From Deltaproteobacteria bacterium (GTDB lineage Bacteria > Bdellovibrionota > JACOXK01 > 2-02-FULL-40-11), in assembly GCA_016198185.1 (NCBI GenBank), contig JACQJD010000080.1, positions 1 through 56,183 on the forward strand: a DNA stretch of 56,183 nt, read 5' to 3'. How positions within the stretch are numbered: the stretch's first letter is position 1; each line of letters begins with the position of its first letter. The notes below the pieces were generated by a model. That model did no database searches. It saw nothing but the letters and a program-made list of their open reading frames with translations, and was not told where the DNA came from. Positions 26,384-48,249 of the stretch are shown piece after piece. The position numbers and the translations under genes are program-made.

Positions 26384-26385
26384 CG

Positions 26386-29753: not shown

Positions 29754-29754
29754 C

Positions 29755-30606: not shown

Positions 30607-30618
30607 GATTTTCCCCCT

Positions 30619-30957
30619 TTAATTGCATGTGACCGTCCGACAAATGCCGATGATCGTCTCAATCGGCCTTTCATCTTCGGCATCCCCTGCATTGAGAAAT
30701 GGAATGCCCGATGTGCGAACCCGAGGTGATGTTCCCAAGGCTCGCTGTTTATTCCCCAAAGAAGGCATATTGACGTTGTGATCGAGTGTTTGTGTTAAAA
30801 ACCGATCCCGAACATTTTCTTGTGTGGTAATGGCGGCCTGAATACACTCAAAAACATATAAATTAAAAAGAATGAGAAAAATAAAAAAGGGCACCAAAAT
30901 AATAAATTCAATCATGGCCTGTCCTTTATTCGTCGGTATCACTTTTTTCTTATTCAT
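30619..30957 (-). CDS. TadE-like pseudopilin
   Basis: KG|QAMIEF prepilin site plus hydrophobic helix; start reassigned to the ATG at 30957. Confidence 0.8.
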   Translation of the reverse strand: MNKKKVIPTNKGQAMIEFIILVPFFIFLILFNLYVFECIQAAITTQENVRDRFLTQTLDHNVNMPSLGNKQRALGTSPRVRTSGIPFLNAGDAEDERPIETIIGICRTVTCN

Positions 30958-31408
30958 TGTCCAACACCCCTTCTGATTGACTTCGAACTTCCGCGGGTCC
31001 CGGCTCACGGGTGAATGGGGAGGCAACCGTCAATGTTTGTAAGGGATTTCCAAGCGTCCCCAATAAAGGAATGTAACTGAGCACCTGATACGTTAATTCA
31101 ATGCGTTCTCCCGCAGCATCTCGAATGACGTGTTGTCCTGGAATCGTCAGCGGCGATGCCAAAAATCCCAACCGATTGTTTTGGGGGGAACCCACAAGCT
31201 CTGACAAATATAGAGAACTATTTCCCGAAACAGACTCTGACCTTGCTGTCATAAAACCTGCATACCGCATGACATGAGAAGCAACGTACGTCAGGGACAA
31301 CTGAACATGAGCCAAAATCAAAAATAAAAGCAGGACAAAAATGAACAAGAACTCTGTTAAGGATTGTCCTTTTTTATTTTTAAGATATGGTTGACACAAC
31401 ACGTTCAT
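30950..31408 (-). CDS. TadE-like pseudopilin
   Basis: KG|QSLTEF prepilin site, TM helix, YAGFMTAR (AAR-like motif). Confidence 0.85.
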   Translation of the reverse strand: MNVLCQPYLKNKKGQSLTEFLFIFVLLLFLILAHVQLSLTYVASHVMRYAGFMTARSESVSGNSSLYLSELVGSPQNNRLGFLASPLTIPGQHVIRDAAGERIELTYQVLSYIPLLGTLGNPLQTLTVASPFTREPGPAEVRSQSEGVLDNE

Positions 31409-31588: not shown

Positions 31589-31601
31589 GGATAAACGTGG
31601 A

Positions 31602-31866: not shown

Positions 31867-32100
31867 ATAAGGTTATCTCCACGCACGTTCCACCTTACTT
31901 TTATTATAACCAAGGTCAGAAAGACCACAAGGTAGGGCTATAAACCCCTCTATGGACTTGCACATTAAAATTTCATTAAATTTTGGCGAAGATTTGACAT
32001 CTTTGCCTTTATTTGTATAAAATTTTGGTAATTCTTATATGTCGAAAATAGGGTTCGGCGTTTCTACAAGTCACCTTAAATGACTTACTAAGGAGGAGAT

Positions 32101-32592
32101 ATGCAAAATAGGGTCGTCGTTGCTATCGTAAAGGCGTGTTTTGTTATTGCCTTTTCTTTAACGGTCACGCTGGCTTTCTCATACCCCTTGATCCCTGATC
32201 CAGAAATCACCCAGGGAGATCTTTGCACAGAAGATAACCCTGATTTTGCAAAGTATCGGTATCAAGAAAACATCCCTTATTGTCAACGTAACGTCAGCAA
32301 AGCCAGACGAGAAAAAATCTATGAAAAATACAATATCCCCTCCCATTGCAGATATCTGTATACGATAGATCATTTTATTCCACTCTCTATTGGCGGTAGC
32401 AATGCGGATCAGAATCTTTGGCCAGAACATGTTTTGGTAAAAGCCACACGGCCAAAGTTAGAAGAGGAGATTTACCTAGCACTGGCACAGGGAGAATTAA
32501 ACCAACAAGAAGCAATCGATATTATTATCAAAGAGAAAACCACAGAGCAACAAAGCCCCCCGGATAATAACAGCAAAGGTGAATGTAACTAA
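32101..32592 (+). CDS. secreted HNH-family nuclease-like protein
   Basis: Signal peptide; IDHFIPLSIGGSN...NLWP HNH motif; AAGGAGG RBS. Confidence 0.85.
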   Translation: MQNRVVVAIVKACFVIAFSLTVTLAFSYPLIPDPEITQGDLCTEDNPDFAKYRYQENIPYCQRNVSKARREKIYEKYNIPSHCRYLYTIDHFIPLSIGGSNADQNLWPEHVLVKATRPKLEEEIYLALAQGELNQQEAIDIIIKEKTTEQQSPPDNNSKGECN

Positions 32593-32610
32593 CAGGGATC
32601 GCTTAAGCAT

Positions 32611-32722
32611 GTCACCCCGAATGCTGGTGAGGGGTTTCATCGATGTATCCCAGAGTATAGTTGATGAGACATTCCGAGCGCCCCCGGCCTTTGCCGGGAC
32701 AGGCTCCGGGCAAGGAATTTTC
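32611..32722. repeat. REP-like repeat remnants with a nested GC-rich hairpin
   Basis: GTCACCCCGA.. and GACATTCCGAGCG...CAAGGAAT resemble the GTCATTCTGAG..GAAT repeats; insert CCCGGCCTTTGCCGGG. Confidence 0.5.
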
Positions 32723-32777
32723 ACCGCTTATTAGATTGAAAGAGAAAGTTATTTCTTCAACGGAAACAGCGATATTT

Positions 32778-33092
32778 CTAAGCTGCTTTTTTCTCTGGAG
32801 TAACATTAAGTGCCAGTTGATAACCTAGGGCCTTAAGAATTTTATAAATGGTATCAAACGTTGGAGCTCTCCTTTGATCACCTTTCTCAAGGCGAGCAAT
32901 GAGAGGTTGTTTGACCTGAGCTCGTTTGGCAAGCTCAAGTTGAGACAATCCAGATCTTGCTCGAAGATCAGAAATTAAATGAGCCGCTTGAAGATAAAAT
33001 TTTTGCTCATCAAATAGTATTTTTAAGGATTTATCTCTTTTAAGTTGTCTTGCGATAATCGTTTCTAATGAAACACTTTTTATTTTTTTCAT
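32778..33092 (-). CDS. HigA-like XRE HTH antitoxin
   Basis: LRARSGLSQLELAKRAQVKQPLIARLEKG HTH_3; 4-nt overlap with the upstream toxin. Confidence 0.9.
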   Translation of the reverse strand: MKKIKSVSLETIIARQLKRDKSLKILFDEQKFYLQAAHLISDLRARSGLSQLELAKRAQVKQPLIARLEKGDQRRAPTFDTIYKILKALGYQLALNVTPEKKAA

Positions 33093-33427
33093 GAAAGGAC
33101 CTCCTTGAGTCGTTTTCTAGCCACATCTAACTCATGTTTAGGGGCTTTTTGCCCCTGTTTCTTATACGAATGTAAAACATGCAGGTGATCAGAAGAAAGC
33201 ATTACATAGAAAAATCGCCATCCTCCTCCTCGCGTTCTTATTTTTATCTCCCAGAGCTTTCCTTCAATAGGTCTAAACTGACATCCCATGGCATTCAAAC
33301 CATACTTTTTAATATCCTCAAAAACAGCCAAGATGTGAGCTTTATCTTCCCTGCTCAAATCCTTTAAAAAGTCCTCAAAATAATTCCTACCTGAATGCGA
33401 ACTTTGAAATGTAATTTTCACTGCCAT
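33089..33427 (-). CDS. RelE/HigB (Gp49-like) toxin
   Basis: KLWEIKIR...WRFFY...LHSYKKQGQKAPKHELDVA; toxin-first gene order; start may be the GTG at 33421. Confidence 0.9.
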   Translation of the reverse strand: MAVKITFQSSHSGRNYFEDFLKDLSREDKAHILAVFEDIKKYGLNAMGCQFRPIEGKLWEIKIRTRGGGWRFFYVMLSSDHLHVLHSYKKQGQKAPKHELDVARKRLKEVLS

Positions 33428-33428
33428 C

Positions 33429-33457
33429 AGAATATAACCACATGGTTATATTGTCAA
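33429..33457 (-). promoter_or_regulatory. sigma70 promoter with overlapping palindromic operator of the TA operon
   Basis: TTGACA-17-TATTCT; perfect palindrome AATATAACCA-CA-TGGTTATATT at 33431-33452 fills the spacer. Confidence 0.8.
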
Positions 33458-33512
33458 GGAATTTTTCAGGGAGATTGTCATTTTAACAAAAGAGTTATAT
33501 AAAGCCTCGTCC

Positions 33513-34511
33513 ATGATTAATAAAATAATTTTTATTATTTTCTTATTATTTTCCATTGGGTCTTATGCCGAAAATAGAGACATTGGTTTTAAAATTGAAA
33601 TAGATACCGAGAAAATCTTACGATTCAAAGATAAAACGGTTCCCAAAATTCTGGAAATTCTAAGCCAAGAAGGCATTAAAATAATTCGTGTTGATAAAAT
33701 GCAAAGTGCCGATCCACAATATACCACGATTCCTGATCTTTATGAGGATTCTCAAAAAGAATGGTATGAAGCTCAATTATTGGAAGAGCCACATGCAGTA
33801 GGTGTTTATTATGCAATTCAAGATCATGAGAATACCGGATTAAATCCGCCTTATAACGATTTGCCGACCATTGCGCTTTTAAAAAATGCGACATTGTATA
33901 CAATTCTTCATGAATATTTACACCACCTGATCACGTTATTTCAGACTCATGGCAGAGGATATCTTTGGCTCGGAGACCAAAAAAAATCTTATGGAACAAT
34001 TGTGCGTGAAACTTTTGAAATCCCTTATTTAAATGCAAAAGGGGATTACCAATATTTATTGCAGAAAAGTGCTAGTATAAAATCAGAAATCATAGACAAT
34101 TTTTATCGAAAATATCTTTCTCTGGGCGTTCAACATATTAAATATACTTACTTTAAAGGATTAGATCATCTTATCATTCCAAAGTTTCTCTACGAACATG
34201 CGGAAGTTTTTGGCGATCAGCTCAATAAAAAAGAAATCTTAGAAGATCTTATCCGGACCTTAGATGAGATTGCTGATGAAGAGAATAAATCTTTAAAAGA
34301 GATGATCGATTATGTTCAGAAAACAGGTCGAGAAAATTTAAAAAATGATGAATTTCTGGGAGTATTTTTTGGTGAACAGGATCCCATTTTGACCTTTATC
34401 GAAAATTCAGAAACTGCCCAAGAGTATAAACGAATTCATGATTGGACAGTTTCAACTGCGCAAAAGGACTTTCCTGAATTAATTGAATCCTCCGAAAAAA
34501 ATAAAGAATAG
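33513..34511 (+). CDS. secreted hypothetical protein with HExxH zinc-metallopeptidase motif
   Basis: Signal peptide (SYA|EN); TILHEYLHH; AT-rich coding sequence. Confidence 0.7.
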   Translation: MINKIIFIIFLLFSIGSYAENRDIGFKIEIDTEKILRFKDKTVPKILEILSQEGIKIIRVDKMQSADPQYTTIPDLYEDSQKEWYEAQLLEEPHAVGVYYAIQDHENTGLNPPYNDLPTIALLKNATLYTILHEYLHHLITLFQTHGRGYLWLGDQKKSYGTIVRETFEIPYLNAKGDYQYLLQKSASIKSEIIDNFYRKYLSLGVQHIKYTYFKGLDHLIIPKFLYEHAEVFGDQLNKKEILEDLIRTLDEIADEENKSLKEMIDYVQKTGRENLKNDEFLGVFFGEQDPILTFIENSETAQEYKRIHDWTVSTAQKDFPELIESSEKNKE

Positions 34512-34555
34512 AACTTAAAACATCTTAAAAGCGATGGGATTCCTGTATAAGGTTT

Positions 34556-35047
34556 TTATGGCGAAAGATGAATCGTCATCCCTTGTTGAAAAAGGGTGAG
34601 CGCATTTTGAAAAGAAACACCATGAGAGTCCGAAGTCTGGTTTTTACGAACAATCCACCCGGAACCCATGGGGGTTTGGATTTGAGTTCTCACATAAAAT
34701 GCTTTTAAAATATCTACCTGCTCTTTTGTTTCGAAATCCCATACCATCCCTTTCCATTCTGATGAAGAATGCTTTACCGCATGATTAAAAAAACAACCGA
34801 TGTCATCAAAAAAAATGGTTTGGATATTTCCGTAACGATCGGCCGATTGAACCGCAACTGAAAATCGCAAATCATTCACAATCATCCCACACTGCATGCA
34901 ACTATCCATGCCAAGCCGTGGCAGTTTAAATTGAGCACCCTTCCATGCCCAAACATAAATCCATAAGATATAAATCAATAAAAAAAGAAACCCTGCCCCT
35001 GCTAAAATATAGGGAACTTTTTTATTCTTGAGGACAACTTTACCCAT
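34556..35047 (-). CDS. nosL: copper chaperone NosL
   Basis: CMQCGM, FDDIGC, TPMGSG motifs; N-terminal TM anchor. Confidence 0.9.
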   Translation of the reverse strand: MGKVVLKNKKVPYILAGAGFLFLLIYILWIYVWAWKGAQFKLPRLGMDSCMQCGMIVNDLRFSVAVQSADRYGNIQTIFFDDIGCFFNHAVKHSSSEWKGMVWDFETKEQVDILKAFYVRTQIQTPMGSGWIVRKNQTSDSHGVSFQNALTLFQQGMTIHLSP

Positions 35048-35050
35048 CCA

Positions 35051-35866
35051 TTACCATTCTTCTTGTTGTGTAAAAATCCAACAGCCTACCAAGCTAAGGA
35101 CCAGCGTCATCAAACTGAGCCAACCGATTAAATACAAAGGTAAACTTTGACCGATCATGCGATCCAGATACATGCCCGCCGCCCCCAATACTTCTAAGTC
35201 GGTCGCCAACAATCGAATGACGAGAATTTTAAAAACCTCAACCGGATTAAATAAACTCAAAGCCACAATAGCCTCACTTCTGAGTCGCAACAGATAAGCC
35301 GTCCCCATGAGACCCAAATCTCCAATCACCGTCAAAAACAACCACAAAAAAATAGCCGCCCCAGTCGCATGAGCTCTGTTATTTGAAAAAACCGAAATCA
35401 TCATTCCCGTCGCCATACACATTACCGTAAAGAGAAGGGCCAATCCCCACAAAACCAGAAAACTTCTTGCCATGTGAACACCCCAAAACCCAATCACCCC
35501 ACTGGATATGGCAAACCCCAGAGAAAGAGAGGTGGCCAATGCTAAAAAGGATCCCAAAAAACGACCTGCAAAATAATGAACTTTGGTCAGAGGATGACTG
35601 AGAAGATACACCAACACCCCTTCTTCTCGATCTCCCGAAATCAATTGCGCACCCAAAGCAAATCCCATGAGCGGAATAAAAAGCATGAGCACATTGACCA
35701 ACATGGCCGAGAGTTTGTTAAACTGAGAAAAGGTTTCTAAATCTGAACTGCCAATAAATGAAAGTAAAAAAGTTAAAAAGGCAAATCCCAAACTAAAACT
35801 TAAGAGCCAACGATTTCGAATGGCCTCTTTGTAAGACAAAATGGCAACCAACCACACTTCATGCAT
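35051..35866 (-). CDS. nosY: ABC permease NosY
   Basis: KEAIRNRW, DREEG.L.YLLSHP, NPVEVF; start reassigned to the ATG at 35866. Confidence 0.9.
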   Translation of the reverse strand: MHEVWLVAILSYKEAIRNRWLLSFSLGFAFLTFLLSFIGSSDLETFSQFNKLSAMLVNVLMLFIPLMGFALGAQLISGDREEGVLVYLLSHPLTKVHYFAGRFLGSFLALATSLSLGFAISSGVIGFWGVHMARSFLVLWGLALLFTVMCMATGMMISVFSNNRAHATGAAIFLWLFLTVIGDLGLMGTAYLLRLRSEAIVALSLFNPVEVFKILVIRLLATDLEVLGAAGMYLDRMIGQSLPLYLIGWLSLMTLVLSLVGCWIFTQQEEW

Positions 35867-36518
35867 AAAAGGGTTCCTTGAGTGAAATGGATTCCACACT
35901 CGGTGCAACCAACCTACCATCTTGAATCTGAATCAAATGATCAGATACCCATTGCACCTCTTCCAAACGATGACTTGAAAGCAAAACCGTTTTCTTTCCT
36001 CGCCATCCTTTAATGATTGAAAGAATCTCTCGCGTGGCCCAAGCGTCCAAGTTGGCTGTCGGCTCATCCAAGAGCACAATCGAAGGATCGGTCATTAAAG
36101 AAAGGGCGATGGAGAGCTTTTGGCGCATCCCTCCCGAAAGCATATGAATTTTTTTGGACACATGCGCCGCTAAACCAAATTCCTCTAAAACAGTATAGGC
36201 CTGTTTTAAATTTACATTTCGCAATCGAGCAAAAAAATGGACTGCTTCCTGAACACGCATTTCAGCCCACAGAGGTAAGTACTGAGGAATATAGCCCATG
36301 GTCTTTTTTATTTCCTGTGCATGATCCTTGAGATTGAGTCCATGAACCTCAATGCTGCCTTCGTAATCCAAAATTCCTAAAATACATTTCAAAAGTGTTG
36401 TTTTACCAGAACCATTGGCCCCAAGAATGCCAACCACTTGTTTGTCGAAAGTTACCGTAATATCTTTTAAAACTTCGTGCGGCCCATAAGACTTATATAA
36501 ATGTGATATTTCAATCAT
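35859..36518 (-). CDS. nosF: ABC ATPase NosF
   Basis: GANGSGKT, LSGGMRQ, LLDEPT; between nosD and nosY; start reassigned to the ATG at 36518. Confidence 0.9.
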   Translation of the reverse strand: MIEISHLYKSYGPHEVLKDITVTFDKQVVGILGANGSGKTTLLKCILGILDYEGSIEVHGLNLKDHAQEIKKTMGYIPQYLPLWAEMRVQEAVHFFARLRNVNLKQAYTVLEEFGLAAHVSKKIHMLSGGMRQKLSIALSLMTDPSIVLLDEPTANLDAWATREILSIIKGWRGKKTVLLSSHRLEEVQWVSDHLIQIQDGRLVAPSVESISLKEPFYA

Positions 36519-37843
36519 AAATTCATAACGCGATTTAATCCCCATGAAATGAATAGAAAAAAAATAGCCACCCAAAAAATGCTATAGGAACTTGATTGCC
36601 TTTTGATCGAAGTCCAAGGATGCATGCTGGGTGAGGGATCTTGGGCTTTGGAATCTGGTTTGAGCCATGGAATGGCACGGCTCGCAAATTCAAGCGCCAT
36701 CATCGCCGGACCAAATTTAAATAGTTTAAATCCTTCATATCGATCGGTCAGGTCATCGGCCAAGTGAGACAAACGATAGGGGATAGCCCCAACGCCCTGA
36801 CCCTGTATATCGATACCCGTATAATCACTCCAATAATTTAATTCCCACTGTGCTTCAATTCTTTCAGCATGGAGCACGCCCAATGGTTGCCAATTATCGA
36901 TGAAATCATTCTGACGATAATTCGCTCCCGTACTTCTTCCGATGAAAGATACACCCACATCATTGAAAACAATTCGGTTACGCTCAATGAACGCAGGTCG
37001 AATATCCTCTGAAAGAGCACCCATTGGAGAATTATCAAAATAAATGCCCACACGATTGCGAAACAATTCATTGTGATTCATTTTAAACTCATTCGAGTCT
37101 TTCAACGCGATCCCAAAACCACTTGGCCCACGATTATTTAAAACCGTATTTCCGAGAATGCTTAACTTGTGACTGTACATGGCATAAATGCCAACAGAAT
37201 TATTTTCGATGATATTCTCCTGGGCTGAGGATTCATCTGAATACATAAAATGAATTCCATATCGACTGCTCTTCATTTGATTCTGATTGAGAGTGGCGTG
37301 TGGAGAATACCAGACAATGACATCTCTGCCTCTAAAAAATTCATTGCGAACCAATTGTAAAGAAGAACTATACCAAGCCTTGAGAAGATCCCCTCGCTGC
37401 GCCAATGCCAAATCGTAACCAGAAATTTTACAATCTTCAATCTGACTGAAAGGACTATTGAGAAGTTCTATGCCAAAAAGACAATTTTCCACCTTGCTGT
37501 TTCGCAGTTCAAAATGAGCACCGTCTTCTACTTTAATACAACTATCCTCAGCCCCTAAAGTGACACCCGAATTTCGAATGGTGATTCCTGAAATATGCAC
37601 CTGCGGAGCTCGTACTTCCAGAACAGTTCCCCGCAGCTTCCCATCTAAAATCACATCATTCTTTGCAATCAGTGTTAAAGGTTTTTGAATTAAAAAATTT
37701 CCAACGTAAGTGCCGGAAGGAATGAGAACCGTTTCACCCGCTTTGGCATGGTTAATGAGCTCCTGGAAAACAGCTGGTGTCTTACTCTCAACCTCAAAGG
37801 ATAAAAAAATTAAAAGAAGCCCACCGAAACAAACACCTCTCAT
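36515..37843 (-). CDS. nosD: N2O reductase maturation protein NosD
   Basis: CASH beta-helix; RYGIHFMYS, NYWSDYTG.D motifs. Confidence 0.95.
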   Translation of the reverse strand: MRGVCFGGLLLIFLSFEVESKTPAVFQELINHAKAGETVLIPSGTYVGNFLIQKPLTLIAKNDVILDGKLRGTVLEVRAPQVHISGITIRNSGVTLGAEDSCIKVEDGAHFELRNSKVENCLFGIELLNSPFSQIEDCKISGYDLALAQRGDLLKAWYSSSLQLVRNEFFRGRDVIVWYSPHATLNQNQMKSSRYGIHFMYSDESSAQENIIENNSVGIYAMYSHKLSILGNTVLNNRGPSGFGIALKDSNEFKMNHNELFRNRVGIYFDNSPMGALSEDIRPAFIERNRIVFNDVGVSFIGRSTGANYRQNDFIDNWQPLGVLHAERIEAQWELNYWSDYTGIDIQGQGVGAIPYRLSHLADDLTDRYEGFKLFKFGPAMMALEFASRAIPWLKPDSKAQDPSPSMHPWTSIKRQSSSYSIFWVAIFFLFISWGLNRVMNL

Positions 37844-38427
37844 GTGGAAGCCTGTGTCAGAAGCTTCTTTTTGATGTTAATGGCCAGCATGTAAATGCCT
37901 GTCGCAAGAAATCCCAACCAAAATCCCACTCCAAACATAGCTTGCGTATGAAATTGACCAATTTTTCCAGCCCCCAACAACCGAGGCATAAACGGTTTAA
38001 TATGCACCGGCGCTTCTGGACTTAAATAATGCCCAAAATAATACATCCAAAAAGTAAAATCACCGATAAATCCAATCAAAAAAAGAATGGGTGGTAAATA
38101 AAAGATAAAATAAATTTTTTTCGAAAAACTTAAAACAATTAAACCTCCTAAAATTAAAAGCCCAACAGCCAGCGCAGCAACTTTCCTTTCCCATTGAGCT
38201 GCATTTTGTAATTTCTCCATCCCAATATAATGATTGAGTAAGTTGACTTCATCGACATCCCCTTCCACATGATCCAAATAAACTTTCATGTGAAGGCCCA
38301 TTGGATATTGCGGAGCTTTGAGATGCATCACCCAATATGGAAAGAAATAGGATCCCGCCAAGATCAATGAAGCCAGAAAGAGCAGAGCATAAAAGGATGG
38401 ATAAGATTTCAACATTTGAAACGTCAT
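37840..38427 (-). CDS. nosB: clade II nos membrane protein NosB
   Basis: APQYPMGL, NLLNHYIGM, YYFGH.L motifs; four TMs; directly after nosZ. Confidence 0.85.
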   Translation of the reverse strand: MTFQMLKSYPSFYALLFLASLILAGSYFFPYWVMHLKAPQYPMGLHMKVYLDHVEGDVDEVNLLNHYIGMEKLQNAAQWERKVAALAVGLLILGGLIVLSFSKKIYFIFYLPPILFLIGFIGDFTFWMYYFGHYLSPEAPVHIKPFMPRLLGAGKIGQFHTQAMFGVGFWLGFLATGIYMLAINIKKKLLTQAST

Positions 38428-38430
38428 CCC

Positions 38431-40374
38431 TTATTGAACCACCAAATAGCCTGTCATTTCCAAATGAAGCGCCGAACAAAATTCTGTACAATAATATGGG
38501 AAAACACCGGATTGATCGGCTTTAAACTCAACCGTTTCCACTTTTCCGGGTTCCAAAGAAACATTGATATTGTACCGACTGATGGCAAAGCCATGTGTTG
38601 CATCCAGAGCGCGCTCAATACTACTTAAGTGTATTCTCACCAAATCTCCTTTTTTAACGTTAATAAGGTCTGGCGTCAGATGACTTCGAATGGTGGTCAT
38701 ATAAACATCAACCGTATTCCCCTTACGAACAATGCGTTCTTTACCGGCCAAAGTTGCAACGGGACTGGGTTTCATTGTTTCAGCACTCATCCCCAGTGGA
38801 TAAACACTCCACGGTTTTAAACGCTCTGCTTTTACAATTTGAGCGTAATGAGGCTCTGCGTTCGGAATGGGCATATCATATAAAACCTGCATTTTTTCTG
38901 AACCGGTTGTAGAAACAAGCTGAAAGTTTTGAGGCAACAACGGACCCACATTCGGAAAACGATCAATGGCCCATTTGTTTAATGAAACACAATAGCCTTC
39001 ACCTGGCTCGGCTGTATCCCCCTCAACACAAGAAAGGTGCCCGATATTATAATGCACCGAAACTTTATCCAAAAGTTTCCATGCTGCGTTGCCCTTGTGA
39101 TAAGGCTCTCCCAATGACCACTTTGCAATGGCTGAGTCTAAAAATAGACTGGTATAGGCATAGCCTTGTTTATCAAATTGCGTATGCAGCGGCCCTAACC
39201 CCACTTCAATCTGAGCCGCCAAAACAGAATCAAATTTTAAAATGGGAACACCATATTCATCTTTCCCTTGAACCAAGTTCTGAGCTATCGCGTTCTTTAA
39301 TTTATTGAATTCAAATACAGTCACATGAGGGTCTAATTTTCCAGATACAACAATATAATTGCCATCTGGCGAAACATCCACACCATGCGGACTTTTAGGT
39401 TCATGGATAAAATAAAGTAATTTTTCTTGGATGGCTTGTTTAAGTGTAATGAGCTTCATCCCTGCTGTTTTTTGAGTCCCTGCGGACTTGGCCACTTTTT
39501 CTGCTTTTTTCCAATCAATCACATGTAAAAAATCCATATCATTGCGTGAAACGGCCATTTCCAATTGAGGTTTCTGATTCATATTATCTGGAGAGGCTAA
39601 CTCCGTGTTGATCGAATTGATAAACAGATACCCATCACTGACTTTTTTTCCAAGATCCACAATATCTTGCCAATACGGAGGCAGCTCTATTGAAAAACTT
39701 TGTGATAGATTGATTTTTCCTTGTGCGCGATCAAATTTCCAAAAGGTCACAACCCCACGATATTTTTTTTTATAGTCCGTCATCGGGGCATAGCGTGCCC
39801 CCAGTGGCACATTATATTGTGAAGTTTCAATAATATATTCCGTGTTGGGGGTCACAAATGTCCCGCCATGATCATTGACAAATAAAGGATTTTGAAGAAT
39901 TTGCTTGGTCGAAAAATCACGTAGGTCAATGACCGCAACACGCGCATTGGCCTTATCATTCACAAATAAAAATTGACCGTCATAGACACCATTGGTTTCA
40001 GAGAGTGCAGGGTGGTGAAGATCTCCCCACCTGAGCGCTTTACCGCCACCATCTAATATACGTTTGGAATCCAGAGAACCCGTTCCCCAGCCTTGCCAGG
40101 AGTCTGGTGAAAAAACAGGAATCGTTTTAATCAGACGCATAGAAGGAAGACCAATCACCAGAACACTGCCGGCATGTCCCCCCGATGCAAACATGAGGTA
40201 TGGGTCATGTTTCCCAGAGGGCGTATAGGTCATCAGCGCTGCGCGCATATCCGAAGCGGTCAACCCTCTTTTTTTAGCAATGTCCTCTAAAACAGAGGCC
40301 TGACTTTGTGTGGCAATGCATAAAAGCACCAGATATCCACTTAAAATAAATCTGATTCTACTGAGGATCATCAT
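38431..40374 (-). CDS. nosZ: Sec-dependent (clade II) nitrous-oxide reductase
   Basis: SGGH, DLHH, SPHG, GPLHTQF, GH, EPH CuZ ligands; CuA YCTEFCSALHLEM; Sec-type leader without twin-Arg consensus. Confidence 0.97.
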   Translation of the reverse strand: MMILSRIRFILSGYLVLLCIATQSQASVLEDIAKKRGLTASDMRAALMTYTPSGKHDPYLMFASGGHAGSVLVIGLPSMRLIKTIPVFSPDSWQGWGTGSLDSKRILDGGGKALRWGDLHHPALSETNGVYDGQFLFVNDKANARVAVIDLRDFSTKQILQNPLFVNDHGGTFVTPNTEYIIETSQYNVPLGARYAPMTDYKKKYRGVVTFWKFDRAQGKINLSQSFSIELPPYWQDIVDLGKKVSDGYLFINSINTELASPDNMNQKPQLEMAVSRNDMDFLHVIDWKKAEKVAKSAGTQKTAGMKLITLKQAIQEKLLYFIHEPKSPHGVDVSPDGNYIVVSGKLDPHVTVFEFNKLKNAIAQNLVQGKDEYGVPILKFDSVLAAQIEVGLGPLHTQFDKQGYAYTSLFLDSAIAKWSLGEPYHKGNAAWKLLDKVSVHYNIGHLSCVEGDTAEPGEGYCVSLNKWAIDRFPNVGPLLPQNFQLVSTTGSEKMQVLYDMPIPNAEPHYAQIVKAERLKPWSVYPLGMSAETMKPSPVATLAGKERIVRKGNTVDVYMTTIRSHLTPDLINVKKGDLVRIHLSSIERALDATHGFAISRYNINVSLEPGKVETVEFKADQSGVFPYYCTEFCSALHLEMTGYLVVQ

Positions 40375-40805
40375 TTTTTCTTCTCCTTTTTTAAAGATTC
40401 TTTTGATGTTTCATCGATATAAGATAGAACTTTCCCAATTTCATCATCTGAAAGGGCTAAGTTGGGCATTTTCGTAAAAAACTTTCCAAGCATTTCCATC
40501 GCAATAGGATCTTTCTTGGCAAAGGCCGCATCCGGGTCTTTCAACCAACTCAACAACCATGATTTACTTCGACGCTCAAGAACGCCTTTAAGATCTGGTC
40601 CCGATAAAGTTCCTTGTCCAATGGTGTGACAAGCATTACAGCCCTTGGCCTGGAAAATTTTTTTCCCTGCTTCTATGTCTGCGGCGCTCCTTTTGGTGGA
40701 TTTTTCATCGGCTTTGACAAGGCCCACACCCGCCAAGCTAAAAAACACCACGAGAATCCAAACAGAGCATAAACTGAAACTACATTTTTTGCGTCGTGTC
40801 ATCAC
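40371..40805 (-). CDS. monoheme cytochrome c (probable NosZ electron donor)
   Basis: Signal peptide, CNACH, GPDL, distal MP; overlaps the nosZ start. Confidence 0.93.
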   Translation of the reverse strand: MMTRRKKCSFSLCSVWILVVFFSLAGVGLVKADEKSTKRSAADIEAGKKIFQAKGCNACHTIGQGTLSGPDLKGVLERRSKSWLLSWLKDPDAAFAKKDPIAMEMLGKFFTKMPNLALSDDEIGKVLSYIDETSKESLKKEKKK

Positions 40806-40826
40806 TACTCCTTTTTTCTCAAAAAA

Positions 40827-41279
40827 TTACGATTTGCATTCATAACAACAAGATTTCATCTTCCAAAAACCAGGTTTAAACTGTAAAGTGGTCAGCATCG
40901 TCACCGTAAAAATAAAAATTCCCACAAGTTGTAACAAACCTGAAATGACAAATAAGGTCGTCCAAAAGGTATTTTCCATGGGCTGATAAAAGCGAATGAT
41001 GGGAAACAGCATCATTCCCACCAATCCCACATTTGATGCCCACCAATTGAAACCTTGCCAAAAGTCCGAAATCAGTGAATGAGCGCAAAATCTTGGGATC
41101 ACATGATAGCCCAAACCAAAAATCATCATGGTAACCCACCCAATCATCATGATATGAATGTGCGAAAAACGCAGGATTCCAACACTCTTTGGATACACAG
41201 CCATACACAGCCCCACCCCTGCTCCCAACAAGAGATATAAAAGCGCTGAAATGGTAAACCATCTAGAATATTTACTCAT
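40827..41279 (-). CDS. 4-TM protein resembling a heme-copper oxidase subunit I fragment
   Basis: HIH....GW...IFG..Y..IPRF pattern; C-terminal CCYEC; first gene of the nos operon. Confidence 0.75.
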   Translation of the reverse strand: MSKYSRWFTISALLYLLLGAGVGLCMAVYPKSVGILRFSHIHIMMIGWVTMMIFGLGYHVIPRFCAHSLISDFWQGFNWWASNVGLVGMMLFPIIRFYQPMENTFWTTLFVISGLLQLVGIFIFTVTMLTTLQFKPGFWKMKSCCYECKS

Positions 41280-41332
41280 TTTCTGCTTTCATTTTCATAT
41301 TGTCAGTCAACATAAAATATTTTACTATAATT

Positions 41333-41352
41333 AATAGATGAATATATCTATT
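41333..41352. promoter_or_regulatory. candidate Rrf2 operator
   Basis: Palindrome AATAGAT-GAATAT-ATCTATT in the divergent nos/rrf2 spacer. Confidence 0.55.
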
Positions 41353-41399
41353 GATAAAAATACAATGAGAGAAGTTTGAAAGTCAATGAATAATTTTTT

Positions 41400-41837
41400 A
41401 TGTTAACCTTAACCTTAAGCCAAACCAATGAATATGCCTTACGGGCAATGTCTTATTTGGCTCATGCCGGTGGAAAGATACCGCTCACGGCCACGAAAAT
41501 TTCACGTGAGACAAAGATTCCCCAACATTATTTATCAAAAATAATGAAACTCATGGTCAATGCGAAGTTGGTGCATTCTCAAAAAGGGCATCGAGGAGGA
41601 TTCGTACTTGCAAAACCACGAACGAAAATTCGTTTTTTCGATATCATTGTTGCCACGGGATATAATCCCAACCCCAATCGATGTGTTTTTGGATGGGCGA
41701 CTTGTAATCCCAAACTCCCTTGTATGCTGCATCACGCTTGGAGCGAGCTCAATACAACTTTTAAAACATGGGCTTTGGAAAAAACGTTGAATGACATTTA
41801 TCCAGAAAATAAAACAGCAAGACAGGTTAAGTCATAA
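41400..41837 (+). CDS. Rrf2-family Fe-S transcriptional regulator
   Basis: EYALRAM, YLSKI, S.KG..GGF.L wHTH; C-x6-C-x5-C-x2-H cluster motif. Confidence 0.93.
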   Translation: MLTLTLSQTNEYALRAMSYLAHAGGKIPLTATKISRETKIPQHYLSKIMKLMVNAKLVHSQKGHRGGFVLAKPRTKIRFFDIIVATGYNPNPNRCVFGWATCNPKLPCMLHHAWSELNTTFKTWALEKTLNDIYPENKTARQVKS

Positions 41838-42547
41838 GCATTTGTTTTTTGGGAAGCTGCCGTCACCAACGTTTTCGATAGAGTTTCAAACTTCTGCACG
41901 TTGTTCAAATGGTCGTGTATTTCTGTATCGCTTAAAGCATTGAGTACCCCTGAAGAAAGCAACAGGTAAATGTCTTTGACTTTGGGAACTTTGGTGTCAA
42001 TGCTTCGAATGCTTAAGGGATCGCTTTTACCCATAAATTGCAGCGGAATATTGGTATGTGCATGCGTGGGCTTTATTTTTTTATATTCTGCCAAAGAATC
42101 ATCTTGCGTCAGCTGAAAAAGATCTGACTTTCTATAAAGATAGGCTCTGCAATTCCCCACATTGGCAACGATAAAACGATCGGCCAAAGTCATAAGCAAA
42201 AGAACACTCGATCCCATATTTTCAAAGACATGATCATAGCGAGCACGTTCAACAATTTTGGTATTGGTTTTTAAAAGCAATAAACGCACATAATTTTCTT
42301 CTAAGGTTAAATTTTCTTGTTTTTCAAACGGCCACGTGGCCTGGGTTTCCATTGAAAAGGAGTGGGCAAATTGAGGAATGAGTGAACACGCCATTTGGCT
42401 CGCAAGTACCCCTCGGTCATGACCCCCCAATCCATCACTCACAACATAAATGCCGGTTTCAGAATCAATTCGAAACACATCTTCATTGATTCCTGTTACA
42501 CGATTTCCCAGAGAATACCCATGCGCAATGAAACGATTTTTATTCAT
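41798..42547 (-). CDS. PP2C-family Ser/Thr phosphatase, probably degenerate
   Basis: NED and DGLGG retained; NVGDSR reads NVGNCR, DHS reads DDS, SDG reads SSG. Confidence 0.85.
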   Translation of the reverse strand: MNKNRFIAHGYSLGNRVTGINEDVFRIDSETGIYVVSDGLGGHDRGVLASQMACSLIPQFAHSFSMETQATWPFEKQENLTLEENYVRLLLLKTNTKIVERARYDHVFENMGSSVLLLMTLADRFIVANVGNCRAYLYRKSDLFQLTQDDSLAEYKKIKPTHAHTNIPLQFMGKSDPLSIRSIDTKVPKVKDIYLLLSSGVLNALSDTEIHDHLNNVQKFETLSKTLVTAASQKTNAYDLTCLAVLFSG

Positions 42548-44480
42548 ATTTTTTTAATTTCCGTTGTGCTTTCTCATAAAATTCATCGGACGGCGGAATA
42601 TGTTCCACAATCCAACGAAAGCGCTGTATCGCTTGATCCACACGGCCTACATTTTCATCAATGACCGCTTCGGTATATTCCCGTTTGGCGATTCCATGTA
42701 ACGCAACAAAAATTCGATCTAACAACTTTTGAGCCTCTGGATGAGAAGGATATTCCTTTAAGACCACTTCTATGATTTCTTTTGCTTGCATATATTCCTT
42801 GGAATCCAAAAGATTTTTAGCTTTATGGATAGCTGCCAGATGTTGCTGTTCAAGTTGTGCTTTGGTCATGGTAATAAATTGCTCTGCTTTGGCATAATGC
42901 TTGGGATCAATTCCTTCCATTTTAAGCACCTTACGCCAGACTTCCAATGCTTGAAGCTTTTTTCCGTTTTGATCTAAGATGGCCCCTTTTGACAACCAGT
43001 CTTCTGCTTTTTTATTTTTTTGGAGCATTGAAGTATCTTTCGGCTCTTGTTGCGGCTTCCGGACTGTTAATTTTTCTTGAGCCACCGATCTTTTCTCGGC
43101 TGCCTCTGGATGTTCGGGTTCCAGTTCCAAAATCTTATCATAGGCCTCCACTGCTTTTTGCCACTGCCCCCGATTAAAATAATCCAGAGCAACGGCAAGA
43201 TGTAATTTAATATCTTCCTTTAATTTTTCTTCTTCAATCTTTGCCTTTCTTTGTGACTCAAAAAAATTCTGTTGAGAAAGCGTCTGATTCACAATTTTTA
43301 AAAACTTGATGGCTTCCACATACTGAGGTGCCATATTCAGTGCTTCTTGCGTTGCAATTTGAGCATGAAGATATTGTCTGTTTTTATAAGCAGCTTTGGC
43401 TTCTTGCAATTTTGCCAACACATACTCTTTATCTATTTTAGTCAAATGAGAAAGTTCATCTTTAGCACTGGGGACACGCGTAAGAGGCCCTTCGGAAACG
43501 GTTAACGTCGGATCTGAAGCAGGCCTCGGGGGCTGAATTTGGGTATAGACGATGAGCAATGCCCCCAGTGCCCCCAATGCAAATAACATTTTTTGACGCT
43601 GCGTAAAGGTTCGTCTCATTTTTGAAATCCCATAGCGAGGCGATGGTGATCGCCACTCTGGAACAATTTTTGAAAGCGCGGTATCTGCCTGTACAAGCGT
43701 CGTAGGGGACTGAAATGAAAGTTCAACAATATCTTCATCACACAACGCAAACTGCAACACACTGTCCCCCAATTGAATATGGTCGGAACTTTTTAAGAGA
43801 TGAGGGGATGTAATCTTTTGATGGTTCACATAGGTACCATTCATGCTGTTTAAATCTTCAAGTACATAGCCTTCTGCTTGAAGTAAAATTTTGGCATGTT
43901 CTCTCGAAATTTTGTCGTCATCCAAAAAAAGATCACAGGCAGCATCTCTGCCGATAACCATTTCCTTTCCTTGAAGATCGTAGCTGGTATGTGGACTCTT
44001 TCCTTCTAGAACCATCAATTTTGCTTTAATACGATGGCTTGAGATCATTGTTTCATCGGTACTTTTGGGAACAGCCTTTTTTTCATGCCCCATCGTTTCG
44101 TCTAAAATAATGGGAAAATCCTCAAGGGATTCCTCTGTCTCCGATTTTATGACTGGTACTGCCTCGCCAGCAGAAGTTTCTGGAATGCTTTTGTTTTCCA
44201 AAAGAATGGTAAAGGGAGGGATTTCAAAGGTAGCAGGTAACGTTAACGCCGTCTCTTTTTCAAGAGGAATGTTTTCAAAGAACACTTTTCCAGTTGCTGT
44301 TTTTTTGACTAACTTTAAACTATCTTCTTCCAATATAACAGCGGCATGTTCTCTCGAAATATGCTGTTCATCTAAAACAATTTCACAAGTCGCACCTCTT
44401 CCCAAAGTAATGGGAAGTTGCGTCAGGAGGCCCTCGGAAATTTTTTTCCCATTTTTTAAGAGCGTCCAGCGAATGTTCAT
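42540..44480 (-). CDS. double FHA - TM - TPR protein
   Basis: Two GR...SxxH FHA domains (second with NGT), a single TM, periplasmic TPR helices. Confidence 0.9.
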   Translation of the reverse strand: MNIRWTLLKNGKKISEGLLTQLPITLGRGATCEIVLDEQHISREHAAVILEEDSLKLVKKTATGKVFFENIPLEKETALTLPATFEIPPFTILLENKSIPETSAGEAVPVIKSETEESLEDFPIILDETMGHEKKAVPKSTDETMISSHRIKAKLMVLEGKSPHTSYDLQGKEMVIGRDAACDLFLDDDKISREHAKILLQAEGYVLEDLNSMNGTYVNHQKITSPHLLKSSDHIQLGDSVLQFALCDEDIVELSFQSPTTLVQADTALSKIVPEWRSPSPRYGISKMRRTFTQRQKMLFALGALGALLIVYTQIQPPRPASDPTLTVSEGPLTRVPSAKDELSHLTKIDKEYVLAKLQEAKAAYKNRQYLHAQIATQEALNMAPQYVEAIKFLKIVNQTLSQQNFFESQRKAKIEEEKLKEDIKLHLAVALDYFNRGQWQKAVEAYDKILELEPEHPEAAEKRSVAQEKLTVRKPQQEPKDTSMLQKNKKAEDWLSKGAILDQNGKKLQALEVWRKVLKMEGIDPKHYAKAEQFITMTKAQLEQQHLAAIHKAKNLLDSKEYMQAKEIIEVVLKEYPSHPEAQKLLDRIFVALHGIAKREYTEAVIDENVGRVDQAIQRFRWIVEHIPPSDEFYEKAQRKLKKYE

Positions 44481-45463
44481 GGTGCTTGGCCTCTTTCTTT
44501 TGATTTTGCTTCTTCAATTTTTTTCAAACTGTCACAATATTTTTCAAAATCTGGGTTCTCCAGCATCGATTGTTCCGCACGAATGTCACAATACCCTGTT
44601 GCAGGCGCACGTCTGGCCAAAAGGGCCATCACCTGTTGGAAGTGGTGGACCGCCAATGCATATTGAGCACTGTTAAAATAATTAATCCCTGATTTGTAAT
44701 GTTGATTAACACTCTCTGTGATTTCTTGCTCCACTTTATCCAAATGAATCTTGGCCAAACGATGCTCTGGATAAAGTTCTAAAGCAGCTTTGAAATCGTC
44801 TAAGGCGCGCAAATAATTCTTGGAAAGCCATTCCCGATAACCAGAAAGATAGAGTTGATTCGCTTTTTCATAGTTAATGGCATAACTTTCTCGGCTAATG
44901 TCTGGCAAGGCCCCTTCGAGATTTAAATCAGAAGAAGGTTCAAATTCATTTTTTTTATCTCCCGCTGGTTTCCGCTGAGGAAGCGGCTGGAGCAGAATCC
45001 AAAGCAATGCTAAAACAAAAATCCCTCCCCCGCCATACCAAAATAAGTGCTTCATGGAGGAATGGCTCTGTGGTGGGGAACTGGCTGAAATAGGTTCCGT
45101 TTGCAGCCCCGTCGTTTCGTGGAATTCTGTCACTGGCTGTGCTGTAGAGGCTAGATCACAAAATCGAAATACGTGTTTTCCAATTTGAATCACATCTCCG
45201 TTGTTTAGTTTTTGATTTAAAATTTTTTGTTGGTTCACCAAGGTCCCATTCGGTGTGTTGAGATCCATCAAATAGTAGGCCCCTTCTTCATACGTAAGAT
45301 GTGCATGATGACGCGAGACACGTTGATCCTCGAGAACAACTTCATTGTCTTGAGATCTTCCAAAATGAAGTGTTTCCAAGGAAAGCTCAATCTGAATTCC
45401 CTTTTCTGAAGGGGATAATCCTTCCAAAAATGGCTTGCGTAGATTGTGGTTACTCATACCCAT
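44477..45463 (-). CDS. FHA - TM - TPR protein
   Basis: FGRS...VSRHHA...PNGT FHA; TM; TPR helices. Confidence 0.9.
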   Translation of the reverse strand: MGMSNHNLRKPFLEGLSPSEKGIQIELSLETLHFGRSQDNEVVLEDQRVSRHHAHLTYEEGAYYLMDLNTPNGTLVNQQKILNQKLNNGDVIQIGKHVFRFCDLASTAQPVTEFHETTGLQTEPISASSPPQSHSSMKHLFWYGGGGIFVLALLWILLQPLPQRKPAGDKKNEFEPSSDLNLEGALPDISRESYAINYEKANQLYLSGYREWLSKNYLRALDDFKAALELYPEHRLAKIHLDKVEQEITESVNQHYKSGINYFNSAQYALAVHHFQQVMALLARRAPATGYCDIRAEQSMLENPDFEKYCDSLKKIEEAKSKERGQAP

Positions 45464-46980
45464 TCCATCCTCTTTAACTGAACAATGTAATAATCAATAA
45501 GCCTGTCACTGTTTTGAGCGGCCGAAATTTTGATTTGGTACTTTTCCTTTTGGATTTCTAATTCTTCAACACTGCTTTGTCCGGAAGCAGCTTGTCCCAA
45601 TCCATGGGAGAGATTACGTAACAAATCTTGGTTTTCAATCATGTCTAAAATATTTTTTTCCCGAATCTCTTCATTGTCTTTTAAATTTGCCAGGCGATAA
45701 AAGATGGGGTTGGCATAAACAACCTCATAGGTATCACTTAAGATGACCACCCCTTCTGGTAAGGAAGTTAGTAAGCTTCTCAAGATTTCGTCGCTGTTAT
45801 GGGAAGAGCTTATCTCTTGGGAGGCTTGTTCGGAAGGTGTCATTTTTGAAACCAAATCTCTGGTCTTTTTGAGCACTTGATTAATGGATCCCACAATTTG
45901 AGACATGTCTTCAAATTTTGTTTTGAGCTCCAAAGGACGATACCCCTTTTGAAAAGAAGTTTTTATCTCCTGATACACTTGTCTAAAGATATGAGATGTA
46001 AAATGATGCAACAAAAAATAAAAAACACTCGCCAACAAAAAACTAATGATAAAGGTTTTTAAAATAAAACTTTGCTTCTCGCCTTTCAAAAATCCAATTT
46101 CTTCTGTATTAAACACTGCTTGAACAACAGCGGCCACCCTTTGAACATTGTTTTTTTCATCAAATTGAAAAATGGGATAAGAAATCAATGCTCGACGATC
46201 ATTGAAAGGTTCAACGAGCAAAGATTGGGCTTCCACCCCTCTCAAAACGGCCCCCACCGCATCCACGCTCTGATCCAGTCGTTCAGCTGGAGACACAATT
46301 TTTTTGGTTTGTGGATTAACAATGTTTACAGATAAAATGCGTTCATCATAACGTCCAAAATCGGTGCTCAAATGAAACGTATCATATATTAGCACACCAT
46401 TTTTGAGCTGGATAAATTTTCGATTTTCATCTGCAATTTTTTTGAGGATAAACTCACCCCGTTTGGTGGCTTCCAAATAAAGTTTTTGTTGCGCCGTATG
46501 CATCAGCCAGGGGGTGGTCAATAAAAAATTAAGAATGACAAACAGTCCAAACAAAAGAAGGGTAAAGTATTTCCATTCGATATGCCTGGATACAAATTCT
46601 AAAAAGGGTTCATACCAAATCATTCTTTTAGGTTCAGACACAATAGGGGTACGGCGTTCCAGATATTCTTGAGGCTCTATGAAATGGGGTAAGAGTTGAA
46701 CAACCACATCATAAAAAGAAATCCGATCGCCCAATTTTAATTCCTTTTTTTCAATCTTTACACCATTCACATAAACACCATTACGACTGTCCAAGTCTTG
46801 AATCCAAATTTTGTTTGGCTCAACGGTCACCACAGCGTGTTTTTTAGAAATACCCTGAGAGTCCAATGGAATATCGCATTCGGATGCTCGTCCAATGGTA
46901 TTGGGACCTTCTTTGAGTAAAAATTCTTTTTTCGAAGAAAGACCTTGCATTAAAACAAGTTTAACCATGCTTTTCCTCAA
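45454..46980 (-). CDS. FHA - TM - periplasmic - TM - HAMP/PAS-like protein
   Basis: IGRA...SKKHA...RNGV FHA; two TMs; LPEGVVIL....VYANP PAS-like end; no kinase domain. Confidence 0.88.
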   Translation of the reverse strand: MRKSMVKLVLMQGLSSKKEFLLKEGPNTIGRASECDIPLDSQGISKKHAVVTVEPNKIWIQDLDSRNGVYVNGVKIEKKELKLGDRISFYDVVVQLLPHFIEPQEYLERRTPIVSEPKRMIWYEPFLEFVSRHIEWKYFTLLLFGLFVILNFLLTTPWLMHTAQQKLYLEATKRGEFILKKIADENRKFIQLKNGVLIYDTFHLSTDFGRYDERILSVNIVNPQTKKIVSPAERLDQSVDAVGAVLRGVEAQSLLVEPFNDRRALISYPIFQFDEKNNVQRVAAVVQAVFNTEEIGFLKGEKQSFILKTFIISFLLASVFYFLLHHFTSHIFRQVYQEIKTSFQKGYRPLELKTKFEDMSQIVGSINQVLKKTRDLVSKMTPSEQASQEISSSHNSDEILRSLLTSLPEGVVILSDTYEVVYANPIFYRLANLKDNEEIREKNILDMIENQDLLRNLSHGLGQAASGQSSVEELEIQKEKYQIKISAAQNSDRLIDYYIVQLKRMEWV

Positions 46981-48230: not shown

Positions 48231-48249
48231 ACGGATATCCTCATGTTCC

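Follow-up and report, generated by a model that had tools for sequence, protein, structure and literature searches.

An intact clade II nitrous oxide reductase cluster inserted in the Tad pilus locus of a small-genome groundwater Bdellovibrionota

We analysed a stretch of DNA of 56,183 nucleotides (hereafter the window), which is the entire contig C37 of the metagenome bin G000 and carries on its minus strand a complete cluster of nos genes for a Sec-type (clade II) nitrous oxide (N2O) reductase: eight intact, co-directional open reading frames (ORFs) between positions 34556 and 41279. The reading that we favour, and consider probable, is that this intact clade II cluster, equipped with its own Rrf2 regulator, was gained horizontally by a small-genome groundwater Bdellovibrionota, was inserted in a Tad pilus locus, and serves N2O respiration in a bacterium that is not a denitrifier. 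The identity and the intactness of the genes, their insertion site, their distribution and the partner complexes encoded elsewhere in the genome are read directly from the sequences compared.

The bin amounts to 1.77 Mb in 93 contigs and is 92.3% complete and 0.07% contaminated. The contig also encodes dnaK, dnaJ, grpE, lon, dnaB, rplI, rpsF, pth and lptF/G, and the named proteins nearest to its Lon belong to groundwater “Deltaproteobacteria” (RIFCSP), Oligoflexia, Bacteriovoracia and Bdellovibrionales. The first-pass annotation of this DNA, made from the sequence alone, had implied a Bdellovibrio-like host; the Lon homologues and a genome sampling at the level of the phylum indeed place G000 in the Bdellovibrionota. 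The stretch is present in four groundwater metagenome runs, all from one study.

Gene content of the nos cluster

The genes follow each other in the order tm4 (a COX1-like membrane protein), monoheme cytochrome c, nosZ, nosB, nosD, nosF, nosY and nosL, all eight intact and with overlaps of 4–8 bases. The compact operon proposed at first reading is thus real, NosZ and NosD both scoring above the cut-offs of their subfamilies. Its span needs correction: it had been drawn from 34556 to 41837, but the nos genes stop at 41279, and 41837 is the end of a divergent Rrf2 gene that had gone unmentioned.

NosZ (38431..40374, minus strand like the seven other genes, 647 amino acids) reaches 816.9 bits with TIGR04246, the model of Sec-dependent NosZ (cut-off 625), and remains below the cut-offs of the Tat-type model TIGR04244 (406.1 vs 625) and of the clade III L-NosZ model (193.6 vs 700). 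As had been annotated, its leader is of the Sec type: no twin arginine occurs in residues 1–40, and a hydropathy scan places a hydrophobic segment at residues 1–22. The protein aligns to solved NosZ structures at E 6e-93, and its ligand motifs align to those of chain 9f8x_A. Seven histidines (H120, H121, H169, H330, H397, H446 and H509), which we take from solved enzymes to be the ligands of CuZ, and the residues H594, C629, C633, H637 and M640, which we likewise assume to belong to CuA, are all invariant in an alignment of 16 close homologues; this agrees with the intact copper ligands of the earlier reading.

The gene preceding nosZ (40371..40805, minus strand), whose last 4 bases are shared with the start of nosZ, encodes a NosC-like c-type cytochrome (PF00034, 41.2 bits) with an N-terminal hydrophobic segment at residues 7–33 and one CxxCH at residue 56, so that it is the single monoheme cytochrome first described. 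It shows 41% identity to the cytochrome domain that is fused to the N-terminus of NosZ in G333, a closed 1.82-Mb Bdellovibrionota genome of a different order. The cytochrome is likely the direct electron donor to NosZ. The N-terminal fusion is found in six of the 18 closest NosZ (P0010, P0012, P0013, P0014, P0016 and P0018); it defines a sub-branch, exemplified by G333 (L101 9648-12080), of which the window carries the split form with its 4-base overlap. In the cNosZ of epsilonproteobacteria the cytochrome c domain is reportedly at the C-terminus.

Directly 3' of nosZ, an arrangement which is a hallmark of clade II clusters, lies nosB (37840..38427, minus strand), recognised by its position, BLAST and the four hydrophobic segments of its product; it matched no Pfam or NCBIfam family, but is 50.5% identical to the gene that follows nosZ in G333 and has BLAST matches in 87 of the 100 loci compared. 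The other hallmark, the lack of nosR, was judged by Fer4_5 proteins, none of which was found in the genome; nosX was not searched for. The maturation genes come next on the same strand. NosD (36515..37843), a periplasmic beta-helix protein, passes TIGR04247 (342.3 bits, cut-off 300) and matches PF05048 (111 bits). The ABC ATPase NosF (35859..36575; PF00005, 105 bits) and the ABC-2 permease NosY (35051..35920; PF12679, 76.9 bits) have no specific model and are named from gene order and from their identity to the G333 proteins, 50.7% and 40% respectively. As these alignments begin at residue 20 of NosF and residue 19 of NosY, the starts are likely internal: an ATG at 36518 for nosF, forming an ATGA overlap with the nosD stop, and an ATG at 35866 for nosY.

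The last gene (34556..35047, minus strand) encodes what we identify, by position and motif, as a divergent NosL, the copper chaperone. It aligns with 15 homologues taken from nos loci, 14 of these 16 rows passing PF05573, and the residues C50, C53, M55, D81, D82 and G84 are invariant in all 16 (C-x-x-C-x-M motif). The NosL of G000 and that of G333 (L101 15596-16072) have an N-terminal membrane helix and lack the lipobox cysteine found in the other 14 aligned NosL.

The first gene, tm4 (40827..41279, minus strand), encodes a membrane protein of 150 amino acids ending in a CCxxC motif. It matches the COX1 profile PF00115 (44 bits, cut-off 34.8) over positions 3–157, the N-terminal part of subunit I of heme-copper oxidases, which presumably corresponds to helices I–IV. 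In this protein, labelled “4TM” at first reading, a crude hydropathy scan shows three clear helices. Conserved residues are H42, G47, W48, P62, N83 and the CCxxC.

Facing tm4, the regulator gene (41400..41837, plus strand) encodes an Rrf2-family protein (TIGR00738, 98.7 bits, cut-off 73.3) with Cys95, Cys102, Cys108 and His111 at a ligand-like spacing. Only this superfamily model was passed; the scores stay far below the equivalog cut-offs of NsrR (29.1 vs 182) and IscR (59.4 vs 207.55). Homologues of this regulator were found in 28 of the 99 other loci compared. The AT-rich intergenic region between the two divergent genes (41280..41399), read from the sequence, contains a 7-bp inverted repeat (41333-41339 / 41346-41352, 6-nucleotide spacer), which is a candidate operator. 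We claim no promoter, because promoter-like hexamers, scanned on both strands, are no commoner than in shuffled sequences (24 sites vs a mean of 28.4) and the terminator scan is not above the shuffle level either (14 vs 11.0).

Respiratory chain and probable use of the cluster

The first-pass annotation had found neither nosR, nosG/H, nir nor nor genes in the window; this holds, and profile searches of the 92.3%-complete bin extend it to the whole of G000. In these searches no nirK passed the cut-off (the best score, 38 bits, is that of a 707-amino acid multicopper oxidase), and nirS, nrfA, cytochrome bd and the cytochrome b of a bc1 complex were not found. There is no second full-length COX1 that could be a nor or a cbb3 subunit, the sole full COX1 being CtaD, no molybdopterin enzyme above cut-off (nar or nap), and no Fer4_5 protein (nosR or nosH). 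The combination of nirK or nirS with nor, by which a complete denitrifier would be recognised, was thus not found in the bin.

By contrast with bc1, the alternative complex III (ACIII), which had been listed beside it for a genome search, is present on another contig. Its cluster encodes an ActD protein (PF11821, 187.6 bits), a QrcA-like multiheme protein corresponding to ActA, a QrcB+QrcC-like protein of 984 amino acids (ActB), an NrfD protein (PF03916, 89.6 bits; ActC) and an ActE-like cytochrome c; a 478-amino acid protein in the position of ActF matched no family. Complex I and the cytochrome c maturation genes are present as well, and so is a caa3 oxidase with its heme A/O synthases and SCO1/SenC. 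As a side observation, on contig C30 of the bin (L114 8250-12988) a DabA/DabB-type pair for inorganic-carbon uptake adjoins the caa3 genes (DabA 535 bits, with a NuoL-like subunit beside it). Nearby are also a DsrO/DsrP-like module, which includes a multiheme cytochrome, and genes for pyruvate:ferredoxin oxidoreductase.

The electron path, the regulation of the genes and the production and use of NosZ are what we infer from this gene content. The simplest path would lead from NADH dehydrogenase to quinol, from quinol to ACIII, then to the monoheme cytochrome c of the operon and to the periplasmic NosZ, in which electrons would pass from CuA to CuZ, where N2O would be reduced to N2. NosDFY and NosL would build the CuZ site, NosB and tm4 would be accessories, and the Rrf2 protein, presumed to be an iron-sulfur regulator, would set the expression of nos. 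Because no nitrite, nitric oxide or nitrate reductase was found and the only oxidase is caa3, N2O from the environment would be the sole alternative respiratory acceptor.

A similar situation is documented in Methylacidiphilum caldifontis IT6, an aerobic methanotroph with a nosCZBLDFYC operon devoid of nosR/X and located among ACIII genes; the part of that report on which we draw describes an increased nos transcription in anaerobic growth, from which its authors conclude to N2O respiration (PMC11102522). The two clusters share a Sec-type NosZ, nosB, nosDFYL and one or more c-type cytochromes encoded in the operon, and for neither of them is nosR or nosX reported—with the limits that our use of PMC11102522 is partial and that nosX was not searched for in G000. 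In both, the rest of the respiration is aerobic, quinol oxidation is tentatively assigned to ACIII and the cluster was apparently acquired, in IT6 from another phylum (PMC11102522). They differ in that the IT6 operon is embedded among the ACIII genes, encodes two cytochromes and is ordered differently, in a host with cbb3 and aa3 oxidases (PMC11102522), whereas in G000 ACIII is on another contig, there is one cytochrome, tm4 and the divergent rrf2 are added, and cbb3 was not found.

The clade II system of Wolinella succinogenes comprises cNosZ with NosG, -H, -C1, -C2 and NosB (Hein et al. 2017, as cited in PMC11102522). The window shares with it the Sec-type NosZ, NosB, nosDFYL and the part of a cytochrome c in electron delivery; it differs in that no Fer4_5 (NapH-like) protein or cytochrome b was found in the bin, and in that the cytochrome is a separate gene. 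Wolinella is said to use a NosGH-C1C2 menaquinol module and a bc complex, with a C-terminal cytochrome domain on NosZ. G333 is close to the window, with a NosZ of the same subclade (67% identity), the same nosZ-B-D-F-Y-L order, a membrane-anchored NosL without lipobox, a small genome, and neither nirK nor nirS found. It is however different by its cytochrome c fused to the NosZ N-terminus (810 amino acids), and by the absence of tm4, Rrf2 or any Tad-locus gene in the stretch read around nos (~9 kb upstream, ~4 kb downstream). All this depicts an ordinary clade II operon in an unusual host, and the operon itself adds little to the known clade II nos systems.

The same intact genes might not be used for energy conservation: they could form a redox valve, or a valve against N2O or nitric oxide stress, or be silent, recently gained cargo. 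The regulator, of a family type that responds to nitric oxide or iron, would suit such a valve, as would the kinship of tm4 with COX1-like proteins that also occur fused to DUF1858; besides, the genome is small and perhaps host-dependent, and no RNA run is among those containing the stretch. We nevertheless judge this unlikely. Eight genes kept intact with coupled overlaps, four of them for maturation, an ameliorated base composition and a full quinol-to-cytochrome c path in the genome all speak against it; so does a comparable operon which reportedly allows an aerobe to respire N2O (PMC11102522, in the part used here).

Insertion in the Tad locus and origin of the cluster

The nos cluster, rrf2 and a segment on their left form a block of ~9.9 kb, from ~31.9 kb to 41.8 kb, between the flp genes and a PP2C phosphatase gene. 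On the native left flank are two Flp-type pilin genes (31602-31784 and 31415-31633, minus strand) with G-Q-x-T-[LI]-[VE]-[EY] motifs as in relatives, although the Flp1_like score, 23.3 bits, is below cut-off, then genes for TadC, a CpaF ATPase, a secretin, RcpC/CpaB and two TadE-like pseudopilins (25526..31408, minus strand; Pfam T2SSF, T2SSE, Secretin and RcpC, the TadE match being weak). The native right flank starts with the PP2C gene (41798..42547, minus strand, 249 amino acids, PF13672), followed by genes for an FHA-TPR protein, two FHA proteins, DUF192 and TadB (42540..48269, minus strand; Pfam FHA, TPR, DUF192 and T2SSF). In four relatives of the same family (G002, G005, G008 and G007) the locus is contiguous and collinear with the window: RHS, TadC, CpaF, secretin, RcpC, two pseudopilins, flp2, flp1, PP2C, FHA-TPR, FHA, FHA, DUF192, TadB. 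The PP2C is found at this very position in three of the four (43–48% identity, 247–280 amino acids), no PP2C match being listed for G007. In G002 and G005, whose spacers were read, only 140–200 bp separate PP2C from flp1, vs ~10 kb in the window. The right end of the block falls within the last 40 bases of rrf2, where the 3' end of this gene overlaps that of the intact PP2C gene by 40 bases.

An RHS-repeat/DUF6531 protein gene (23849-25516, minus strand) lies directly after TadC and is at the same position in all four relatives, with 47–51% identity. The RHS-repeat protein and the PP2C phosphatase are conserved parts of the Tad locus in this family; the former may be a cargo or a tip component of a Kil-like pilus.

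The left part of the block (31900..34555) is AT-rich (GC 0.366), its 2.7 kb are compositionally atypical—their tetranucleotide distance is at the 98.7th percentile of genome windows of the same size—and it has no counterpart in the four relatives. It encodes a secreted HNH-like protein (32101-32592, plus strand, weak HNH match), a helix-turn-helix antitoxin (32778-33092, minus strand, PF01381), a Gp49/RelE-like toxin (33089-33427, minus strand, PF05973) and a secreted protein of 332 amino acids with an HExxH motif (33513-34511, plus strand, recognised by this motif). Possibly this segment arrived later than the nos genes, as a separate insertion next to them. The nos genes and this toxin-antitoxin segment would together make up the block now occupying the flp-PP2C spacer of a conserved Kil-like Tad locus.

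The nature of this locus raises the question of predation. Kil-like Tad systems, rich in FHA-domain proteins, have been linked to contact-dependent killing and prey invasion (PMC8460266, in the part used here), a link to which a bioRxiv preprint from 2026 about the Tad system of Bdellovibrio also points. The host possesses the core Tad genes and three FHA proteins, and the placement of nos inside a putative predation locus, put forward in the first-pass annotation, agrees with the FHA-rich kind of locus described in that part of PMC8460266. With the Kil systems of Myxococcus xanthus and Bdellovibrio, as far as described in the portions of PMC8460266 and PMC13200544 at hand, it has in common a CpaF-type ATPase, a secretin, CpaB/RcpC, TadB/C, Flp, pseudopilins and FHA proteins, to which the window locus adds PP2C and the RHS-repeat protein. 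This comparison concerns the surroundings of nos only, which are known here from their genes. As to an N-terminal FHA fusion of the ATPase, the 25 top-ranking of its 40 family matches include no FHA.

Only its position ties the nos cluster to predation. A functional coupling has been imagined, in which the block would be co-regulated with Tad/flp and N2O released by denitrifying prey would sustain hunting or persistence in anoxia. The block does lie within a Kil-like Tad locus, its nos genes run in the same direction as the Tad genes, contact-dependent killing and the invasion of prey have been associated with such systems (PMC8460266, same part), the genome is small with no other anaerobic acceptor found, and the habitat is groundwater. 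On the other hand, the nos position at the Tad locus is unique to G000, and the G333 nos genes are free of any PP2C, FHA-TPR or Rrf2 homologue over ~9 kb upstream and ~4 kb downstream. Furthermore the operon comes with a regulator and an intergenic region of its own, in divergent arrangement; between it and flp lie a toxin-antitoxin pair and genes on the opposite strand; the runs containing the stretch include no RNA run; and predation by this organism is itself only deduced. Such a coupling appears improbable to us.

The distribution of NosZ argues for a horizontal gain of the cluster in the G000 lineage. Among G000 and 60 relatives, G000 alone has a NosZ above cut-off (1 of 61 genomes); at the scale of the phylum NosZ occurs in 9 of 401 sampled genomes, G000 included, and in 4 of the 121 genomes of the order of G333. 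The window NosZ belongs to a well-supported clade of 19–20 proteins, one of which is the NosZ of G333, at 67% identity the nearest detected among the other genomes of the phylum; a congener of G333 has no NosZ. The best match, at 84% identity, is on a 2.6-kb contig, and scans of genome contigs and metagenome contigs gave, among the matches listed, no NosZ closer than 60–61% identity. The other Bdellovibrionota NosZ are 36–51% identical to that of the window and stand elsewhere in the tree. A comparison of the NosZ phylogeny with the species tree had been proposed at first reading. In the approximately unbiased (AU) test, the hypothesis that the 11 Bdellovibrionota NosZ used, drawn from G000 plus 9 further genomes, form one clade was rejected at p ~1e-60, for a grouping defined only after the first tree had been seen.

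Several observations weigh against our reading, or at least against parts of it. The composition of the nos operon is native (GC 0.415 vs 0.417 for the genome, tetranucleotide distance at the 82nd percentile); as it shows no sign of foreign origin, it is distribution and synteny that carry the case for transfer. Among the ORFs no integrase was found, nor a tRNA in a scan of the window, nor convincing direct repeats at its flanks. As to the donor, P0016, one of the 18 closest NosZ, is that of G333 and thus from the Bdellovibrionota too. The putative NosL scores only 13.6 bits with PF05573, below the cut-off of 24. The bin being 7.7% incomplete in 93 contigs, nir, nor or cbb3 could have been missed, and the searches take Fer4_5 to cover NosR and NosH, and PF00115 to cover NorB and CcoN. 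Finally, no RNA run figures among the runs that contain the stretch.

Alternatively, the cluster could have stood at this site in the ancestor of the family and have disappeared from all the relatives sampled. The native-like composition would suit this, as would the native status of the tm4 family in the lineage and the frequency of N-oxide reductase genes among the members of the family. This would however require losses in 8 of 8 family relatives and 3 of 3 class relatives, leaving a clean spacer of 140–200 bp wherever it was read; moreover G333, whose NosZ (67%) is the closest found elsewhere in the phylum, is of a different order and has a congener without NosZ, and the Bdellovibrionota NosZ do not form one clade. 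We thus consider an ancestral cluster very unlikely.

An error of assembly or binning, by which a nos block from another organism would have been wrongly joined, could be suspected from a genome that is a metagenome bin, from the lack of NosZ in all 60 relatives and from the atypical composition of the left 2.7 kb, but it is barely credible: housekeeping genes and a Tad locus of 14 genes, in synteny with four relatives, flank the block on either side within one contig, the nos operon has the composition of the genome, and mis-assembly is rejected because independent per-run contigs bridge the junctions and the read depth is even. The border check called for in the first-pass annotation consisted of these two analyses: the right junction is spanned by contigs from all four runs and the left one by contigs from two of the four, of which one may be the source sample, with 0–1 mismatches, and the depth is even across the stretch, e.g. 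20–24 in nearly every bin of X1. A small contig which in all four runs touched 29745 and 35984 was treated as noise, only 27 of its bases being placed (record 2, 29719-29745).

N-oxide reductase modules in the relatives

Cultured Bdellovibrio-like predators had been presented at first reading as essentially aerobic. This does not extend to the lineage studied here: NirK is present in 5 of 8 relatives of the same family and in 1 of 3 of the same class, G002 has in addition a NarG-like molybdoenzyme of 1162 amino acids, and G009 has NrfH with an NrfA-like protein that scores below its cut-off. As relatives carry nirK, the lineage is not strictly aerobic, and the N-oxide modules vary between the genera of this small-genome family. 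Outside G000, among 11 other nosZ-bearing genomes of the phylum, six have nirK above cut-off, one has nirK fragments and one nirS; G333, G326 and G172 have neither.

We also observe that in G001, G002 (L133 7537-14937), G003, G005, G008 and G011 NirK is fused to a cytochrome c domain (~470–530 amino acids) and followed by an FGE/EgtB-like gene. Apart from this, ORFs of ~500 amino acids matching the cupredoxin end of NosZ had been candidates for a clade III (lactonase-type) NosZ in relatives. They were discarded, as the matches fall inside NirK matches in G001, G002, G003, G005, G008, G011, G035 and G053; the candidate of G002 was also checked by family score.

The gene tm4 accompanies these modules. 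Homologues with 43–57% identity occur in 5 of 8 relatives of the same family and 1 of 3 of the same class (e.g. L133 10153-10638, L135 6823-7314, L134 8330-8740), and the CCxxC tail is kept in all six aligned Bdellovibrionota copies, that of G000 and five from relatives. In 4 of the 4 relatives with enough context, tm4 is beside a nitrite reductase gene: 1.6–2.4 kb from nirK in G001, G002 and G008, while in G009 it adjoins an FNR-like gene and directly precedes nrfH and the NrfA-like gene. Near nosZ it is rare elsewhere, with 4 cases in 80 named loci and none in 80 metagenome loci. The Atlas places tm4 in a family of COX1-like proteins of 130–150 amino acids, some members of which are fused to DUF1858 or FixO. 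The gene family is native to this lineage; judging from its neighbours, tm4 may assist periplasmic N-oxide reductases, as an accessory not described so far.

According to the part of PMC13200544 used here, no true anaerobes had been known before in the Bdellovibrionota, and metagenome-assembled genomes of the phylum carrying nirK are mentioned in the consulted part of PMC13586399. The literature that names both Bdellovibrionota and nosZ or the enzyme, as far as its accessible text goes, reports no nosZ in the phylum, the supplements, which possibly list such genomes, lying outside this search; no publication pairing Oligoflexus with nosZ was found.

N2O reducers that do not make N2O are net biological sinks of this greenhouse gas, and it matters therefore which lineages reduce it. 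The finding of a nos-only cluster, presumably fed by ACIII, in a 1.8-Mb Bdellovibrionota beside sister genera with nirK points to interchangeable modules of N-oxide respiration in small-genome groundwater relatives of bacterial predators. One may go further and picture a Kil/Tad-armed, probably predatory or epibiotic Bdellovibrionota with N2O as its only anaerobic acceptor, its sister species having nirK, a Nar-like or an NrfA-like enzyme instead, so that the N-oxide steps would be divided between species that live with denitrifying prey, on it or next to it, and every module would include the same undescribed accessory, the COX1-like four-helix protein with its CCxxC tail. This wider picture is speculative, and we hold it to be rather doubtful as a whole. 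G000 is at any rate a concrete candidate for asking if the nitrogen cycle involves predators or epibionts.

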